From NCBI GenBank assembly GCA_010093605.1, contig MU004190.1, positions 1,571,599-1,635,598 of the forward strand: DNA of 64,000 nucleotides, written 5' to 3'. The translations under genes and the position numbers were made by a program. Positions 28,527-61,420 of this stretch are shown here, one piece after another; the first letter of the stretch is position 1, and every line of letters starts with the position of its first letter. The DNA is from Lophium mytilinum. Taxonomy: Eukaryota. Under the pieces are notes generated by a model that saw only the letters and a list, made by a program, of their open reading frames with translations, searched no databases and was not told the DNA's origin.

Positions 28527-28895
28527 GGTTGGGCGTGATCAGGTTATGCCTTGGACCATTGCATTTGGCAGAAAGCTTCGAGTGATGAGAGATGCGGCGA
28601 AACTTTTGAGCAACACAAGCCCTCAGCTTTTCTTACACTGGTCTAGCACCACTTGGGGTTCTGTAGCACATCGTAAGAATTTGGAAAAGGGCAGTTTCAA
28701 CAAGTCTGGAAGCTTTGCGGGCCACCTCTAACGGCGTCAGACTGAGTGAGTCTCCGAGGTGGTGAGCGAGTCCACGAAGCAATGCGTAGGCGTAGAGTTG
28801 TGCAATAACTCCTCGCTGCGTGGCGGAGATTTCATATCGGTGTTATGTGACGTGACGTGACGGGCAAATACAGTGAAGTAATTTTTGGTGGGTGA

Positions 28896-28924
28896 CACGT
28901 GCGCAAATTTTAAGGGTATATATA
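28896..28924 (+). promoter_or_regulatory. CACGTG plus TATA box upstream of ncRNA copy A
   Basis: cacgtg at 28896-28901 and tatatata at 28917-28924, about 31 nt before the start of the terminal stem; equivalent elements precede copies B and C. Confidence 0.6.
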
Positions 28925-28947
28925 CTAAAGTATTTTGAACAGAATCT

Positions 28948-29147
28948 AAAGAAACTCGACTCACAGTCCTGTGCCGGGCGATGACATAGCACACTCACTC
29001 AGTGTGTTAGAGCTCACGCTACTCTAAACCGCACATCCAAGGACATCGTGCCGGGCGCTGACATAGCACACCCAATCATCGCAATGGCGCGGTGTGTTAG
29101 AGCTCACGCTATTCCAAACCGCACAGAGACGAGTTTCTCTTTTTTTT
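28948..29147 (+). ncRNA. Candidate Pol III structured ncRNA, copy A (terminal stem plus two conserved bulged hairpins, 28971-29034 and 29048-29124)
   Basis: Motif gtgccgggcg(a/c)tgacatagcacac-loop-gtgtgttagagctcacgcta(c/t)tc(t/c)aaaccgcac occurs twice; 5' agaaactcgactc pairs with 3' gagacgagtttct; T8 at 29140-29147. Confidence 0.75.
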
Positions 29148-29175
29148 GCATTCTACCTCTCTTATTAGAGGACCT

Positions 29176-29186
29176 GGTTCGACTCG
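29176..29186 (+). promoter_or_regulatory. Pol III B-box downstream of ncRNA copy A
   Basis: GGTTCGACTCG about 29 nt after the T-run, with no tRNA cloverleaf around it. Confidence 0.7.
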
Positions 29187-37472: not shown

Positions 37473-39986
37473 ATGGCGCAACCCGAGAAGAAACGAGGGC
37501 TCCCGCCCAAGATTGCCGCGATGAAAGCGCGGAAGCGACAAAAGGTCGAGAACCCCACCACCTCTCCCTCTGAAACATCGAAACCCGCGAAGCAAGGGCG
37601 GAAGGTGCGCCTCGACGAGCTGAAATGGACGGAGGTGGAGATGCCGGATCGGATGGATGATTTCGAGGGCTTCTTTGGCTTGGAGGAGATTGACGACGTA
37701 AAGATTGTGAGAGAGGATAATGGGAGGATGTACTTTGAGGCGTTGGATGAAAAAATAATCAAGAGTGGAGCGGCCAATGGCAAAGCCAAAGCCAGCGGAG
37801 CAGAAGCTGGCGATATCGATGATACCGGAGATGATGACGCGGACGATACAGAGTGGTCTGGGTTTGGGGATGACGATGTCGAGCCGGTAAAGCCAGTCGA
37901 GCCTCCGGCGAAGAAATCGAACTTAAAGGAGAAGAAGGATACTAAGAAGGCCCAGAAGGAGCAGAAAGATGCGAAGAAAAAGGAACAGAACGATACCAAG
38001 CCTAGTAAAAAGGACATCAAGAAGAAAGAAAAACAGACAAAAGCATCCATACCGTCTCTGTCAAGTGATGCTACGGGGTTTGATGCCTTGGACGCGCTTA
38101 ACGAAGGTGACGAGGAGATGGACGTTTCTGCATGGGAAGAACTGGAACTTTTACCCCAGACCTTGTCGTCCCTTTCGAAGCTTGGATTCGGCAACCCTAC
38201 ACCAATTCAATCCTCCGCAATACCGGAAATTTTGGCCGGCAACGATGTGATTGGAAAAGCGTCCACGGGGTCTGGAAAGACTCTAGCATTTGGTATCCCA
38301 ATACTCGAGAGTTATCTAGCAAGACCGAAGAAGACTGCAAACGATACGAAAACATCCGAGCAGAAGCCGCCGCTTGCCTTGATCTTGTCGCCGACTCGAG
38401 AATTGGCACACCAAATCACCGATCATCTCAATGCACTTTTCAAGGGAGGGAATTTTGAAGGCCCGCTGATCGCAACTCTGACGGGGGGTCTTTCGGAGCA
38501 GAAGCAGCAACGTCTACTAGCGCATGCAGATGTCGTAATTGGTACACCTGGACGATTGTGGCAAGCTATGAGAGAGGGTCACGGTCTTGTGAAATTATTC
38601 AAGAAAATTCGATTCTTGGTCATTGATGAAGCCGATCGTCTCCTCTCCCAAGGTAACTTCAAAGAGGTCGAAGAGATTCTCAACGTGCTCGAACGCGAAG
38701 ACGATGAAGCAGTTTCCGACGCTGAGTCCGACACCTCCTCGGCCCCACCTCCTACAATGACCACCCCTCCACCTCGCCAGACTCTCGTCTTCTCCGCGAC
38801 CTTCAACAAAGACCTGCAACAAAAACTCTCTGGTCGCGCCCGCAAGTCAACTACCTCAAATCTTGCCACCCCCCAACAGTCCATGGAATACCTCCTCACC
38901 CGCCTTCGCTTCCATGCCTCTCCATCTGGCAAGCCCAAGTTCATCGACGTTGACCCATCCTCCCAACTCGCTCGCAAAATTCGCGAAGGTCTCGTCGAGT
39001 GTGGTGCGCTAGAAAAGGATCTCTACGCCTACGCCCTCCTCCTCCATCACCCGAATGTCCGAACGCTTCTCTTCACAAACTCAATATCCGCTGTCCGCCG
39101 CCTAGCACCATTTCTGCAAAATCTGGGCCTGCCGGCGCTGCCACTACACAGCCAAATGGCCCAGAAAGCACGGATGAGATCAATCGAGAAGTTCAAGTCG
39201 CAGAAGGGCGCGATTCTCGTAGCGACGGATGTGGCAGCGAGAGGACTTGATATTCCGGCGGTGGCTTTGGTGCTACATTACCATCTACCGCGAGCTGCGA
39301 ACACGTACATACATCGCGCGGGCCGTACGGCACGCGGAGATGCTAGTGGAAGCAGCATCCTTCTCTGTGCGCCCGATGAGGTAGCGGGTGTGAGACGCTT
39401 AATCGCAAATGTGCATCAGAGATCGACGTTCGCAACGGAACAACACGATAGCGAGAACTCCGATGACAGTTCCAGTAACGACGAAGATGAACAAGCGACT
39501 GAGAAGACGGTTACCAAGAAGAAGGATTTCAATAAAAAGAAAGGAATCCACTTCATTCGCACCATAGACATCGACCGCCGTCTAGTAGCCCGCATCAAGC
39601 CCCGCGCAGATCTCTCCAAGAAAATCACTGATGTCCAAGCTGCTAAAGAGAAGAAATCAAGCGCTGATGAGTTCCTCCGCCAAGCCGCTGAAGATCTTGG
39701 CGTTGACTACGACTCCGAGGAGCTCGATGCCCAAGGCTCTGCTGGAAGGATGAATAGAGGTGCGGGCCGTAAGAGGCGCGAGAGAGAAGCACGCGGTATC
39801 AGCAAGGACGAGATGGGCGCCTTAAGAGCCGAGTTGAAAGACCTTCTGAGCCGGAGGGTCAATGTGGGTGTCAGCGAGAAGTATCTGACTAGCGGCGGGG
39901 TGGATATCGATGCTTTATTGAAAGGTGATGGCAAAGGTATCTTCCTAGGTCAGGTAGCTGGGGTAGGATTGTTTGACGACGAATAA
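37473..39986 (+). CDS. MAK5: DEAD-box RNA helicase, Mak5/DDX24-like (60S biogenesis)
   Basis: Q motif GFGNPTPIQ, ASTGSGKT, SPTRELA, TPGRL, DEAD, SAT, ARGLDIP, HRAGRTAR; N-terminal FFGLEEID typical of Mak5. Confidence 0.9.
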   Translation: MAQPEKKRGLPPKIAAMKARKRQKVENPTTSPSETSKPAKQGRKVRLDELKWTEVEMPDRMDDFEGFFGLEEIDDVKIVREDNGRMYFEALDEKIIKSGAANGKAKASGAEAGDIDDTGDDDADDTEWSGFGDDDVEPVKPVEPPAKKSNLKEKKDTKKAQKEQKDAKKKEQNDTKPSKKDIKKKEKQTKASIPSLSSDATGFDALDALNEGDEEMDVSAWEELELLPQTLSSLSKLGFGNPTPIQSSAIPEILAGNDVIGKASTGSGKTLAFGIPILESYLARPKKTANDTKTSEQKPPLALILSPTRELAHQITDHLNALFKGGNFEGPLIATLTGGLSEQKQQRLLAHADVVIGTPGRLWQAMREGHGLVKLFKKIRFLVIDEADRLLSQGNFKEVEEILNVLEREDDEAVSDAESDTSSAPPPTMTTPPPRQTLVFSATFNKDLQQKLSGRARKSTTSNLATPQQSMEYLLTRLRFHASPSGKPKFIDVDPSSQLARKIREGLVECGALEKDLYAYALLLHHPNVRTLLFTNSISAVRRLAPFLQNLGLPALPLHSQMAQKARMRSIEKFKSQKGAILVATDVAARGLDIPAVALVLHYHLPRAANTYIHRAGRTARGDASGSSILLCAPDEVAGVRRLIANVHQRSTFATEQHDSENSDDSSSNDEDEQATEKTVTKKKDFNKKKGIHFIRTIDIDRRLVARIKPRADLSKKITDVQAAKEKKSSADEFLRQAAEDLGVDYDSEELDAQGSAGRMNRGAGRKRREREARGISKDEMGALRAELKDLLSRRVNVGVSEKYLTSGGVDIDALLKGDGKGIFLGQVAGVGLFDDE

Positions 39987-51060: not shown

Positions 51061-52209
51061 CTTTGGTTGCTTGCTTGATCGCGATAGCTGAAAAACTTTT
51101 GTCACACATAGTTGTAGAAGCTGCAGAGAGAAGGGGTTATAATGCGGAGGCAGGGAGGTCATGGTTGGCTCGCTACCCCCGGGGACCCATGGGGCGCCTT
51201 GCTATTCCAAGTCTGGGCCAAAACCCTATCTTCACGTCCCAGCATCACCCATCGCCTGCGTTCAACAACGACGGCGTGTCCAAGCAAGGAGAGTCAAAAC
51301 TGATGATATTGTACACTGTGGTCCTAATCTGACATCTTTGTCTTAGAAAGTGGCCGGAGTCGAGGTTACTTCAGGGTATTCGAGAGCCGCAACATGAAGA
51401 AAAACAGCTTCAGCTACTCCTGCCTGCGCTGTGGTAATGACTTCACGTTAGGCTATCCAGAGGTCCAAGTCATACTACTCAGCTTCTTCGACCTATAGTT
51501 GAGAATTATGACACCTCCAGCCGCTCCCGCCAGTGCTGAGATAATTGAGTTACGGTCGGTCGATGGCAAAGTCACGGTCTTCGGACTTTTGTATCTGTAA
51601 TTGAAAAGAAGAACGGCTTAGACCGCTCCTCCCAGCGTTCTGGTGATGATTACATGGTATGCTGATGTGCAAATCAACAAAGTACTCCATCTTCGCGGTC
51701 AATATGTCTAATCATCAATCCCCACCTCGCTTCGCAGCACTGGGAGGAGTACCCTAGCTAGGATTTGTCTATTAAGTCGAAAGATGGCTCGTTTTCCATT
51801 GCTTGGGGTTTTTCATCGTACCTGGAGTTTCCAAAAGCCTATGCTCAGGCTGCTCTTTGCAGTCTGGATGCCGCTGTTAGGAGTGCGCCAGCTCGAGAAT
51901 TATAGCCACATTATGCATCAAATCTTAAAGCATTAGATCTCAAAGAAAACATACGTGAAGGGCTTGGTCGCGATAAGAGCATTCAAGGTCCTAAATGCCG
52001 CTTGCTGAGGCAGCCATGCGAGCTGTTTATCATCCGGGGAATCGCCGCATGAGCTTGACAGATGAAGGTTGTATTACTATTTGGCTGTGGGCACACATGA
52101 CGTGATGTGCGCATCTCTGATCGGGCGGGCTCGGCACGTGCGTTAAGTAAAGCGCAGGTGCGCAACCGTTTTTTGAGGTACATATTTTGAAATATTCTAG
52201 AGGTATATC

Positions 52210-52416
52210 AAAAGTTGCGAACCGTGTTCTGTGCCGGGCGATGACATAGCACACTCAAGCAGTGTGTTAAAGCTCACGCTACTCCAAACCGCACATCCAA
52301 GGGCATTGCAGTACCGGGCGCTGACACAGCACACTCAATCATAGCTTGCCACGGCTCAGTGTGTTGAAGCTCACGCTACTCCAAACCGTACAACGCTTAA
52401 GGCGACCAACTTTTTT
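52210..52416 (+). ncRNA. Candidate Pol III structured ncRNA, copy B (hairpins 52231-52294 and 52311-52391)
   Basis: Same motif twice; terminal stem aaaagttg/caactttt; T6 at 52411-52416; tacatatt at 52179. Confidence 0.75.
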
Positions 52417-52445
52417 GCACCTTGGAGACCCTCTTTGGAGACCCT

Positions 52446-52456
52446 GGTTCGAATCG
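52446..52456 (+). promoter_or_regulatory. Pol III B-box downstream of ncRNA copy B
   Basis: GGTTCGAATCG about 30 nt after the T-run. Confidence 0.7.
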
Positions 52457-52722: not shown

Positions 52723-54753
52723 ATGGAGCACTTGATCTCCACCATCAGGAAGATATGGGTACCGCTGCCGGATTCTCTCATACCCATCGACATCTCTCCA
52801 CGCAAAGACTACAATCCCCACCAAATCAATCTTTCCCACTGGCCGCCCATTGATCTGCTACAACGTGTCCAGATCATCGCCCAGGTTATTGGAGAGAAGG
52901 ATTATTTGTATGCGCACGCGCGCATGCGGCGCGCTGTGGATATTCGCATTAGAGAGACCGAAGAAGATGGAGAGAAATACTGCGGCGAGCGCCTGAAATT
53001 GTTTGAGGCACAAGATGCCTCCGCTCTGATCAAGGAGCTCCGACTTGAAAAGCAAGGCCGCTCGAAAGCGCCATGTAGAGCTGCGGTGCTGGCGGAGTAT
53101 GGAGGCGCCGCCGACCCTTCGATGGATCCAAAGCCTCCGAAACCTATCACTGAAGGGCCTCCGGCTGCTGGAGAGTATTCGGGTAAGCAGCAAGCAACGG
53201 GGAACTGCGAACGCGATGACATCAATCAGCACTTCTCTAACTCAGCCAATCATCCACCATTTCGGAATCCTACTCCAGAGCCATCGGCAGCGCAGATTCA
53301 GGTCCAGTCAGAGATTGATGTCGATTCAGAAGGTCTTCGCGAGACGACGGACAGTTCTACGCGCATCGGGCTTCACACATCACCACACTTGCATGCGGCT
53401 CAATATTTGGCGCCCACGCAACCTGTACTTGCGACACATGTACAAAAGCGGAAGTGGGACGGAGGGGGCCCACCGCCAGAAAGCACTCGAAACATTAGGC
53501 GGATCCCCCAATCTTGGCTGTCGTCGATGCAAACAAGCGAAGAAGACCTGCCGGGACTATATAGGAAACATGACAACGTCGACCCCTTTGCGCCTGAAAA
53601 TGGGCAGGACCACCGCGCAAAGATCCCCAGCATAGAAAGCAGCATTGTCGGCCAGAAGCCTGCCGCACCAGATACCACAGCGAGCCAACCTACTAGCCCT
53701 TTCGTAGCCCCACCAATGCATTACTCAAGTAACATGAGCTCTGCGCTGCCTCAAAGCTCTCCCCTGACAGAAGTAGTCAGTCTTGAAATGTCTGCACCCC
53801 CATCAAGACCTCCACATGCTTCCAGGCGTCGCAAGAAGTCTCCACCACGTCGACCTACGCAAGAAGAACTCGCAAGTGATGAAGCCGATGACGATCCTTT
53901 TGACGGAATTATCCCAGGAAGACAACCTGCCCTTCCCAACAGAAGCGATAACCTGACCGCGCAAGTTGTTGCCCTCAAGCTCGAAAATGAACGTTTGAAA
54001 GCAGGCCAAGCCAGTCTACACGAGTCGCTTGCAATTTTAGTCAGAGACCTACATCAACGGCAAAGTGAAGTCAACGCGCTGAAGGCTAGAAAGGCCAGTG
54101 CACCGCAGCTTCCCAAGTCCTTGAAGGCGTCTGAGGACAGGGTCAAGGAGCTTGAGAAGGAGATTCGAGATCTCCAGTCGCGCCCTCTCACCATCAATGA
54201 GTTCTTTGTGCAGACGCTGGAGGAGCTACGGGAGCGGATGCTTTTGTCTTTCTCTGACGAAGAGGGAACTGTCGATAACGAGGATATCAAGAAACTGAAG
54301 GGCGCTATCCATGCTACTAGCAAAGGCCTCTCAGACGATGAAGTCTTGCGTGAACACCTCGGTCGTGACGAAGAGATTAGAGAGAAGGCCGACCAGAAAT
54401 TGGAGACGGCGGAGACGACCCTTCAGGACTACCTTGAAGCTCTCGATTCGGATGTTCACGCTGAGCTCATGACATTGATTGGCGATGTCGCAAATGCACG
54501 GGAATCAGCTGTCGCTGCCGAACGCGATGAGGAGCGATCACAGCAACGCTTGTCCAGACATAACATGATGAGGATACGCGCGGAGCAGTACAAATATTTG
54601 GCAGAGGAGAAACATGGGGGGCTTCATATCGATCCCCTCATGAGGGACTTGCTTGTTCCCGCAGTGAGGTTTAAGCAAGCGGTTGAGCCTTCAACCGGCG
54701 GCGAAACTGGGATAACAACTAGATCTGGTCGCAGCATAGGTGGAAATGGATAA
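52723..54753 (+). CDS. Orphan ~676-aa protein with a disordered centre and coiled-coil C-terminus
   Basis: Long intronless ORF with first ATG at 52723; the ORF track's TTG start at 52435 overlaps the B-box region and is unlikely. Confidence 0.7.
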   Translation: MEHLISTIRKIWVPLPDSLIPIDISPRKDYNPHQINLSHWPPIDLLQRVQIIAQVIGEKDYLYAHARMRRAVDIRIRETEEDGEKYCGERLKLFEAQDASALIKELRLEKQGRSKAPCRAAVLAEYGGAADPSMDPKPPKPITEGPPAAGEYSGKQQATGNCERDDINQHFSNSANHPPFRNPTPEPSAAQIQVQSEIDVDSEGLRETTDSSTRIGLHTSPHLHAAQYLAPTQPVLATHVQKRKWDGGGPPPESTRNIRRIPQSWLSSMQTSEEDLPGLYRKHDNVDPFAPENGQDHRAKIPSIESSIVGQKPAAPDTTASQPTSPFVAPPMHYSSNMSSALPQSSPLTEVVSLEMSAPPSRPPHASRRRKKSPPRRPTQEELASDEADDDPFDGIIPGRQPALPNRSDNLTAQVVALKLENERLKAGQASLHESLAILVRDLHQRQSEVNALKARKASAPQLPKSLKASEDRVKELEKEIRDLQSRPLTINEFFVQTLEELRERMLLSFSDEEGTVDNEDIKKLKGAIHATSKGLSDDEVLREHLGRDEEIREKADQKLETAETTLQDYLEALDSDVHAELMTLIGDVANARESAVAAERDEERSQQRLSRHNMMRIRAEQYKYLAEEKHGGLHIDPLMRDLLVPAVRFKQAVEPSTGGETGITTRSGRSIGGNG

Positions 54754-60314: not shown

Positions 60315-60325
60315 CGGTTCGAACC
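60315..60325 (-). promoter_or_regulatory. Pol III B-box downstream of ncRNA copy C
   Basis: GGTTCGAACCG on the minus strand, about 20-27 nt past the T-runs. Confidence 0.7.
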
Positions 60326-60344
60326 CAGACCTCCCAGGAGGAAC

Positions 60345-60559
60345 AAAAAACAAAAGAAATTGGTTACCAAGGTGCGGTTTGGAATAGCGTGAGCTCTAAC
60401 ACCCCGAGCACATTGCTATGATTGGGAGTGCTATGTCATCGCCCGGCACGGCGTCTAGGATCCTTTGTGATGTGCGGTTTGGTGTAGCGTGAGCTCTAAC
60501 CAACTGAGCAATTGCTGTAGTTGGCTATGTCAGCGCCCGGCACGGATCCCAATTTCTTT
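60345..60559 (-). ncRNA. Candidate Pol III structured ncRNA, copy C (hairpins 60472-60543 and 60372-60449)
   Basis: Reverse complement of the same motif twice; 11-bp terminal stem aaagaaattgg/ccaatttcttt; T4 and T6 runs; TATAAATA at 60582-60589; CACGTG at 60616-60621. Confidence 0.75.
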
Positions 60560-61420
60560 GGAACCTGCCAAAATATTTTGGTATTTATACGCCAAAAAGT
60601 CGCTTAGCTCACTTTCACGTGGCAGCCACCCGATATTTCTCCACCACCATCTTTCACCCGCAATCCTCCTTCATCTCCTTTCGACAGCTGCCTGACTAGC
60701 TAATGTAGACCTTGCCAGCGCTTTGTTACCACGCTTCTAACTCTCTCTGTTACTTGTCACTAACAACCAAGTCCTCACGTCTCCACACCCCAGACAGTCA
60801 ACACGTTACCTCATGACTCCTCTATTCGGGCGAGAGGGCTTTTCGCAGTCCTTACCTTTTGGCATTTACGGCAGTCGCCTTACAACCTGTGTGCCACAAG
60901 TGCCAAGTGCAACAGGGTCAAAGCCCGTCCTGACTCCTCTACAGCGAATCCCAATTCGGCGAATGGTTAGTTCCCGACCACGGACTCAATCTATCTACCA
61001 AGGACCTCCTATGGATCTTACTTTGCCTCCACATCACTGAACCTCGTGTCTGGGAATACACTGCCGCATGGTTGCGGTAGTTCTTGGTATTTGATTCGGT
61101 ATATTGAGGACGCAGAAATGGGAGGATGGGGATGCGCGGTCAACAAACGGAGGCGAGAAAGACGAGTGGGAATTGGAAGTTACTGAATATACCACCGTTC
61201 CTATCCTGTTCTTGCGACCTAGACACCACTGTAAGAGATATCCTAGCTACAACGTCTTCACTTAGTCAAAATGTAGTCTCATATCCACTTCGTCGAGTTT
61301 TCCATCTTATCTAGGGCCTTCGAAACCTATCGCATTAGCCTATGCAGTGGCAGAGAGTGCGCTATCTTAAGGCTTGGTAATATACATTCTCCACTACACC
61401 CATCTTTCGTCGTCCTTCAC

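Follow-up and report, generated by a model that had tools for sequence, protein, structure and literature searches.

What is the element on the minus strand at positions 60345 to 60559 of a 64,000-nucleotide (nt) stretch of the Lophium mytilinum genome (GenBank assembly GCA_010093605.1, contig MU004190.1, positions 1,571,599 to 1,635,598; this whole stretch is referred to below as the window)? A sequence-only reading had described it as copy C of a repeated locus with two hairpins, one that had replaced its upper stem and its terminal stem and still kept them paired, and had suggested that the loop of the second hairpin is a guide or recognition element. We find that copy C is the third of three paralogous ~200-nt loci in the window (copies A, B, and C; for coordinates, see Table 1), each with two hairpins of one design that are 64 to 81 nt long. 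Judged from their sequence, these loci very likely form an RNA polymerase III (Pol III)-type gene family that is under selection.

Three paired-hairpin loci and the predicted fold of their RNA

The two hairpins of each locus give six units, which are sharply set off from the rest of the window. A 29-nt half-unit pattern has 6 matches in the window, compared with 0.00 expected, and a covariance model of the six hairpin units, run with filters off, recovered exactly those six (84 to 104 bits; E values of 1e-26 to 3e-21), with the next-best match in the window at an E value of 1.6. The three copies lie within 32 kb, and the family may be either clustered locally or numerous throughout the genome. 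All three loci are intergenic; the sole open reading frame (ORF) of at least 90 amino acids (aa) that starts with ATG and touches any of them runs on the opposite strand, is 97 aa long, and covers the last bases of copy B and its B-box.

On the strand proposed to be the RNA, all six units share one minimum-free-energy (MFE) fold, whereas their folds on the opposite strand are unlike one another. From base to tip, each arm consists of a basal stem, GUGC(C)GG/CCGCAC, a one-sided 9-nt internal loop, UAYNCYAAA, a middle stem, a 9-bp upper stem, and an apical loop. In the six-unit alignment, standard pairs account for 127 of 127 stem cells, and double-sided changes affect 4 of 22 pairs, a count that rises to 6 of 22 once two pairs of C_H1 (hairpin 1 of copy C) that had been gapped by MAFFT are added. 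None of 500 column shuffles reached the observed pairing or the observed covariation score, and 4 of 500 reached the covarying-pair count. When the partner strand is slid by 1 to 3 columns, pairing falls to 18 to 48% and no covarying pair is left, while a model-fitted alignment gives pairing and covariation counts identical to those of the six-unit alignment. Pair 3 of the upper stem is G.U in all six units. The complementary strand would have an A-C mismatch in its place, and this invariant pair therefore favors the same strand that the TATA box, the T-run, and the B-box indicate.

The two arms are enclosed by a terminal stem of 9 (copy A), 8 (copy B), or 11 (copy C) contiguous Watson-Crick pairs, starting 2, 1, and 0 nt, respectively, from the predicted start. 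When the 3' segment was shuffled with its composition preserved, runs at least as long arose in 10 (A), 19 (B), and 1 (C) of 5,000 cases. A further short helix encloses hairpin 1, with the sequence GUCCU/AGGAC in copy A and GAUCC/GGAUC in copy C; in copy B, GUUCU/AGGGC or an alternative is possible. The RNA is thereby modeled as a Y shape, in which a terminal stem, formed by the 5' end and the sequence preceding the U-tail, carries two arms of one design. The cost of this common fold over the free MFE is 0, 0.7, and 1.2 kcal/mol in the three copies, and copies A and C fold better than shuffled sequences (z scores of -3.16 and -2.86).

Copy C contributes to the covariation in a way that differs somewhat from what the sequence-only reading had proposed. 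The upper stem of C_H1, UAGCCAACU/AGUUGGUUA, forms 9 bp in the MFE fold, so that the claim of preserved pairing holds, but the stem has not been replaced: compared in register with that of the five other units (UAGCACAC(U/C)/(A/G)GUGUGUUA or a close variant), 7 of its 9 pairs are the same, and the only differences are two adjacent compensated swaps, AU to CG and CG to AU, changed on both sides. The 5-column gap that MAFFT opens in this stem is an alignment artefact. Similarly, the terminal stem of copy C does have its 11 contiguous Watson-Crick pairs, but it is not wholly a third sequence, since its core resembles that of copy A (AGAAACUCG/CGAGUUUCU), from which it differs by two pairs, C-G to U-A and C-G to G-C, both of them compensated.

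Outside the arms, the loci have diverged to a much greater degree. Identity between loci, calculated as matched bases over the longer sequence, is 0.79 to 0.94 for the hairpins and ~0.60 for the 120 nt upstream. It is 0.36 to 0.69 for the terminal segments and the linker, and the terminal stems still pair. For the distal flanks it is 0.15 to 0.58, compared with 0.41 to 0.43 (standard deviation [sd], 0.13 to 0.15) for shuffled controls. The fact that the hairpins are kept while the distal flanks are at the level of shuffled sequence suggests that the copies are old. The survival of the arm sequence, of pairing in the diverged parts, and of motifs at fixed distances has the appearance of a gene family under selection, unlike that of recent repeats.

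Signals around the predicted transcripts

Each locus carries the same set of signals, with distances given here relative to the predicted start, which is the terminal stem's first base. A TATA-like box is found at -31 in copy A (TATATAT) and at -30 in copies B (TACATA) and C (TATAAAT). A T-run directly follows the 3' arm of the terminal stem in all three loci, at +193 in copy A (8 T), +203 in copy B (6 T), and +210 in copy C (6 T). Beyond the T-run by 19 to 30 nt is a B-box-like sequence, GGTTCGANYCG, at +230, +239, and +236 in A, B, and C, respectively. The three loci are the only places in the 64 kb of the window with GGTTCGANYCG, each time on the RNA strand (0.26 matches expected), and 1 of 100 shuffles had three matches; the bare heptamer GGTTCGA is common in the window (14 matches versus 8.0 expected). 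The minimal B-box consensus is GWTCRANNC, and the B-boxes of all three loci fit it.

Based on these motifs and their spacing, the three loci would be paralogous genes for a structured noncoding RNA of ~195 to 215 nt that is transcribed by Pol III. The TATA box at -30 would position TFIIIB, and the extragenic B-box, located 19 to 30 nt past the terminator at ~+235, would recruit TFIIIC. The first, A-rich bases of the terminal stem would be the start of transcription, and the run of 6 to 8 T its end. Once made, the RNA may function through bound protein. By analogy with the Y, vault, and dimeric Alu RNAs discussed below, the stems, bulges, and 9-nt loop that make up each arm's invariant lower two thirds could be a duplicated protein-binding platform, and the RNA could scaffold a small ribonucleoprotein (RNP) that binds two protein copies or a dimer. 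The base-paired ends and the U-tail would stabilize the RNA and allow La to bind, CAAUCAU(A/C)GC and the rest of the arm-2 apical region might offer an additional recognition surface, and the upper stems, loops, and terminal stems, being variable, could change as long as pairing is kept. We estimate the probability of this combined reading, a gene family with protein binding as the leading function, at roughly 0.6, as far as sequence analysis can support it. The RNP-scaffold function taken by itself is a tentative analogy that we rate at somewhat less than an even chance, and a role of the arm-2 loop as a specific recognition element is rather doubtful.

Several further features lie within or close to this arrangement. 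All three loci have ACGTG cores (ACGTGA or CACGTG, resembling an E-box or a cAMP response element) that precede the predicted start by 51 to 98 nt (positions 28850 to 28900, 52136 to 52140, and, on the minus strand, 60619 to 60623), copy A having three of them. If the promoter is of a mixed Pol III type, these cores might activate it from upstream. A string similar to AAANTATTYT lies in all three loci in the interval from the TATA box to the predicted start (28926 to 28945, 52187 to 52205, and 60562 to 60580 on the minus strand); in yeast SNR6, the corresponding interval has a functional T-stretch (PMC9136082). Between the T-run and the B-box there is a small CCUC...GAGG stem-loop followed by a T-arm-like string (29156 to 29186, 52424 to 52456, and 60315 to 60338 on the minus strand), and copy B has a direct repeat of GGAGACCCT at 52424 to 52432 and 52437 to 52445. 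This T-arm-like string, taken together with a D-arm-like string in C_H1, suggests that the family may have descended from a tRNA gene whose 3' half persists only as a promoter. tRNA models (ARAGORN and covariance-model searches) do not score the stem-loop and T-arm-like region. A scan for bacterial-type promoters and terminators gave nothing useful and is irrelevant for a eukaryote.

Table 1. Positions of the three loci and their parts in the window
Feature	Positions	Strand	Remarks
Copy A, whole locus	28917-29186	+	
Copy A, TATA box	28917-28923	+	
Copy A, predicted transcript	28948-29147	+	
Copy A, hairpins 1 and 2	28971-29034; 29048-29124	+	
Copy A, T-run	29140-29147	+	8 T
Copy A, B-box	29176-29186	+	
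Copy B, whole locus	52179-52456	+	
Copy B, TATA-like box	52179-52184	+	TACATA
Copy B, predicted transcript	52209-52416	+	
Copy B, hairpins 1 and 2	52231-52294; 52311-52391	+	
Copy B, T-run	52411-52416	+	6 T
Copy B, B-box	52446-52456	+	
Copy C, TATA box	60583-60589	-	TATAAAT; its first T precedes the terminal stem's first base by 30 nt
Copy C, predicted transcript	60345-60559	-	Predicted start, A at 60559; end, T-run; ~213 nt
Copy C, terminal stem, 5' arm	60549-60559	-	AAAGAAAUUGG; 11 Watson-Crick pairs
Copy C, 5-bp helix extending the base of hairpin 1	60548-60544; 60463-60459	-	GAUCC/GGAUC
Copy C, hairpin 1 (unit C_H1)	60472-60543	-	85 bits in the covariance model; two compensated pair swaps in the upper stem
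Copy C, hairpin 2 (unit C_H2)	60372-60449	-	100.8 bits in the covariance model
Copy C, apical motif of hairpin 2	60415-60424	-	CAAUCAUAGC
Copy C, terminal stem, 3' arm	60353-60363	-	CCAAUUUCUUU; immediately precedes the T-run
Copy C, T-run	60345-60350	-	6 T; predicted Pol III terminator; T4 directly before
Copy C, B-box-like sequence	60315-60325	-	GGTTCGAACCG; 19 nt beyond the T-run, +236 from the predicted start

Known RNA classes and comparable systems

Searches for known RNA classes were negative. No family of Rfam 15 reached its gathering threshold anywhere in the window (the families searched include U6, Y RNA, vault RNA, the signal recognition particle [SRP] RNA, 5S, RNase P/MRP, U3, small nucleolar RNAs [snoRNAs], and ribozymes), and for loci C and A, the Rfam matches at E values up to 10 are only noise. 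ARAGORN found no tRNA gene in the 64-kb window. We also considered and rejected a series of individual candidates. A tRNA or a tRNA-derived short interspersed element (SINE) is rejected based on the lack of an ARAGORN gene or a tRNA-model match, the location of the B-box beyond the T-run, and the lack, by reading, of a tail or a direct flanking repeat. A miniature inverted-repeat transposable element (MITE) or foldback transposon is rejected because the terminal arms are not common to the copies and no duplications are seen by reading. An H/ACA snoRNA does not fit: by reading, there is no ANANNA in the hinge of copy A, AUCCAAGGACAUC (the hinges of B and C were not scanned), there is no 3' ACA, the ends are paired and U-tailed, the internal loop is one-sided, and there is no Rfam match. 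GAUGA and CUGA strings each occur in the 5' strand of 3 of the 6 units; by reading, a box C/D kink-turn was rejected, as the positions of the opposing GA are AA in both units of copy B and the kink-turn register conflicts with the covarying upper stem. A tRNA cloverleaf within one unit and a hammerhead core were also rejected by reading. The likeness to an SRP Alu domain is limited to a common GCCGGGCG string, and the U6-like ACAGAGA string is present in copy A only.

No homologue outside the window was recovered from metagenome or viral DNA. The only stretch that a metagenome scan with a gapped two-part unit pattern returned was a chance match; it lies in coding DNA of high GC content that looks bacterial, and it lacks the hairpin. 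In viral contigs, the pattern for the 3' half gave no stretches, and a 5' pattern with 15 specified bases gave 68, which were taken as chance without further checks because none of them matched the 3' pattern. A literature search, from whose coverage most subscription journals are absent, found no description of such an RNA, and a full-text search with six short unit strings returned only 3 unrelated matches of the primer type. The RNA family is probably uncatalogued, and the function that we assign to it by analogy is offered as a proposal.

Structural parallels are found among Pol III RNAs of animals. Y and vault RNAs are animal Pol III transcripts of ~100 to 200 nt with paired ends beside a 3' U-tail, conserved protein-binding lower parts, and more variable upper parts; they form small clustered families of paralogues and serve as RNP scaffolds. 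To our knowledge, neither is known from fungi. The Lophium RNA would share with them its size, its terminal stem and U-tail, the conservation of its lower parts and variability of its upper parts, and the clustering of its paralogues. In contrast, there is no match to their sequences or models, and the Lophium RNA has two duplicated arms on a three-way junction, whereas Y and vault RNAs have one stem with a loop. Dimeric RNAs derived from Alu/7SL are Pol III tandem dimers of two related arms, each a protein-binding module, and the tandem pair of related folded arms is likewise present here. However, there is no match to an SRP or Alu model at E values up to 10, the loci described here are not retroposed (the promoter is outside the transcript and there is no A-tail), and they are fungal.

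With regard to gene architecture, the closest parallel is SNR6, the U6 snRNA gene of Saccharomyces cerevisiae. The B-box of SNR6 lies near +234, ~120 nt behind the T-run, and is thus farther from the terminator than the B-boxes described here, which are 19 to 30 nt behind the T-run. Further differences are that the RNA, which has no Rfam match, is something other than U6, that there is no A-box consensus, and that there are three paralogues. According to PMC9136082, SNR6 has a TATA box at -30, an oligo-T terminator, and an extragenic B-box downstream of the terminator; the three loci share the TATA box at -30, the oligo-T, and a B-box past the terminator, here at +230 to +239. A parallel of another kind is RUF6 of Plasmodium, which PMC9670795 describes as a lineage-specific, multi-copy family of Pol III noncoding RNAs outside the classical Pol III set. 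The likeness is limited to this lineage-specific, multi-copy character, and the sequences are unrelated. For RUF6-5, cmscan gave a single line (13.5 bits; E value of 7.7), which falls downstream of copy C in T-rich DNA and amounts to noise.

Fungi are generally credited with a small, fixed Pol III transcriptome, consisting of tRNAs, 5S, U6, RNase P RNA, 7SL, and few others. If the gene-family reading is true, a multi-copy, strongly structured RNA that is absent from Rfam would be an additional member of this set. The loci would also be a second natural case of an SNR6-type promoter, with a B-box behind the terminator at ~+235, in which the role of the spacing could be tested outside U6. The duplicated invariant arm points toward an RNA-binding protein as its putative partner, and the TATA/B-box cassette might provide the Dothideomycetes, for which few tools exist, with a native Pol III unit for expressing small RNAs.

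Alternatives, and the two hairpins compared

Some observations weigh against a Pol III gene family with a conserved Y-shaped RNA. The minimal A-box consensus is TRGYNNANNNG, and no match to it, and thus no canonical A-box, was found in the 3 loci; there are only A-box-like, D-arm-like strings, the best one in C_H1. Copy B is no more stable than its shuffles (z score of +0.16, with 115 of 200 shuffles at least as stable). When RNAalifold is applied to the three bodies, it favors a swapped basal pairing, in which the 5' strand of arm 1 pairs with the 3' strand of arm 2. The swap costs little because the two arms are nearly identical, and the two forms are separated by copy B alone, in which GUAC/GUAC gives two Watson-Crick pairs within the arm and one G.U plus one C-A when swapped. 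The sample consists of three copies from one genome, so that the covariation is drawn from paralogues with common ancestry, and gene conversion among the units could mimic purifying selection. With respect to the swapped form, we also note that the arms (28971 to 29124, 52231 to 52391, and 60372 to 60543) could switch between within-arm and swapped pairing or could pair between molecules. A pairing of loop 2 with arm 1 (UCAUCGC with GCGAUGA) was dropped, as it is perfect in copy A only.

The explanation that comes nearest to competing is that the Pol III transcript is a small-RNA precursor from which Dicer, RNase Z, or another nuclease cuts microRNA-like RNAs, with the conserved arm as the mature product. 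Such loci are known from another filamentous ascomycete: as described in PMC3547838, milR-1 to milR-4 of Neurospora crassa are Pol III dependent and have a T stretch right after the small RNA, and milR-1, which is without an A or B box, requires TATA-like elements. The combination of hairpins with a TATA box and a T-run is present here also, the T-run of the milR loci being directly after the hairpin. Nevertheless, we consider this explanation unlikely, since the arms are irregular and not Dicer-like (9-nt one-sided loop, bulges, and stems of 3 to 9 bp) and since invariance extends to both strands and to the unpaired loop instead of being confined to one arm. The two near-identical arms with a terminal stem and the downstream B-box are further differences from the milR loci. 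Less probable still is a selfish or decaying repeat, whether a tRNA-derived SINE, a MITE, a foldback element, or a set of functionless old segmental duplicates, to which we give little credence. Three copies in 32 kb, inverted terminal sequences, and tRNA-like fragments (the D-arm-like string in C_H1 and the T-arm-like B-box region) would be expected of such a repeat. Against this, the terminal inverted sequences differ among the copies and vary by compensation, and they are therefore not a shared terminal inverted repeat; by reading, no target-site duplication or A-tail is seen at the three loci; and the distal flanks are scrambled while the stems are 100% paired. The TATA box and the B-box, moreover, are outside the transcribed part, so that retroposition of the RNA could not have copied them, and yet they are at fixed distances in all three loci. 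An isolated B-box without a clear A-box would also be consistent with a chromatin element, that is, an extra-TFIIIC site or boundary at which the hairpin DNA is incidental or is a protein-binding palindrome. This we regard as very improbable, because it leaves unexplained the compensatory changes, the conserved G.U, the strand-asymmetric folding, the T-run after the terminal stem, and the TATA box at -30.

The sequence-only reading proposed that the two hairpins have specialized and that the exposed loop could be a base-pairing guide or a recognition element. The underlying observations are correct: CAAUCAU(C/A)GC starts the apical region of hairpin 2 in all three loci, and the apical loops of hairpin 1 are CACUC, CAAGC, and, in copy C, ACAGCAAUUGCUC. 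Specialization is borne out insofar as arm 2 has a long apical region with this 10-nt motif in all three loci and the motif is absent from hairpin 1. It is not borne out as a clean separation of two lineages, since, at position 11 of the unit, copy C has the bulged A/C swapped and B_H2 (hairpin 2 of copy B) has an internal loop of the hairpin-1 type, UACUCC. Moreover, C_H1 retains a diverged long form of the hairpin-2 apical sequence, and the 5-nt hairpin-1 loops of copies A and B resemble deletion forms of the long loop in which the CA at the start and the C at the end are retained.

For the guide explanation, in which CAAUCAU(A/C)GC would be the seed for an rRNA, snRNA, mRNA, transposon, or mycovirus target, there is the conservation of a 10-nt motif in all three second hairpins while the remainder of the loop is variable, and partition-function folds predict that the first 3 to 4 bases of the motif are open in all copies. 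However, the mean predicted unpaired probability of the whole motif is only 0.50, 0.72, and 0.55, and in copies A and C the CAU part belongs to a small apical helix. An exact complement, GCKATGATTG, is found in the 64-kb window only at the three loci themselves, and complements with one mismatch occur elsewhere in the window 11 times, compared with 7.9 (sd, 2.9) per shuffled window. The motif is constant and has not diversified among the paralogues, which implies at most one target for such a guide, and three paralogues do not separate constraint from common descent. We consider it distinctly unlikely that this loop is a guide. The 9-nt internal loops UAYNCYAAA are conserved in all six units and are more consistently unpaired (0.56 to 0.95), and based on the modeled folds, they are at least as good as the apical motif as candidate recognition elements.

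A bolder extension of the gene-family reading, which we put forward as a long shot, is that these loci represent a lineage-specific class of fungal Pol III RNA in which a constant, duplicated protein-binding arm presents paralogue-specific upper stems, apical loops, and terminal stems. Such RNAs would be a programmable recognition set (guides or adaptors, like snoRNAs or Y RNA/adaptor systems) rather than one housekeeping RNA, and they perhaps arose from a tRNA gene with its 3' half left only as the B-box.

Among the protein-coding neighbors of the loci, a 676-aa ORF (52723 to 54753, plus strand) begins ~270 nt downstream of the B-box of copy B on the same strand, which places copy B in the promoter region of that gene; the longer frame that holds this ORF has no match to a Pfam family. 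An 837-aa ORF at 37473 to 39986 (plus strand) encodes a DEAD-box helicase of the MAK5/DDX24 type with 95% identity over 74% of its length to a protein of Mytilinidion resinicola, and its next named relatives, from Glonium, Cenococcum, and Lepidopterella, are at 57 to 59%. These identities place the source of the window among the Dothideomycetes, within the Mytilinidiales or close to that order, and a protein-atlas search pointed to the Ascomycota. Other ORFs of the window include members of the fungal families TCO89, GH76, 2EXR/DUF7730, and FtsJ.

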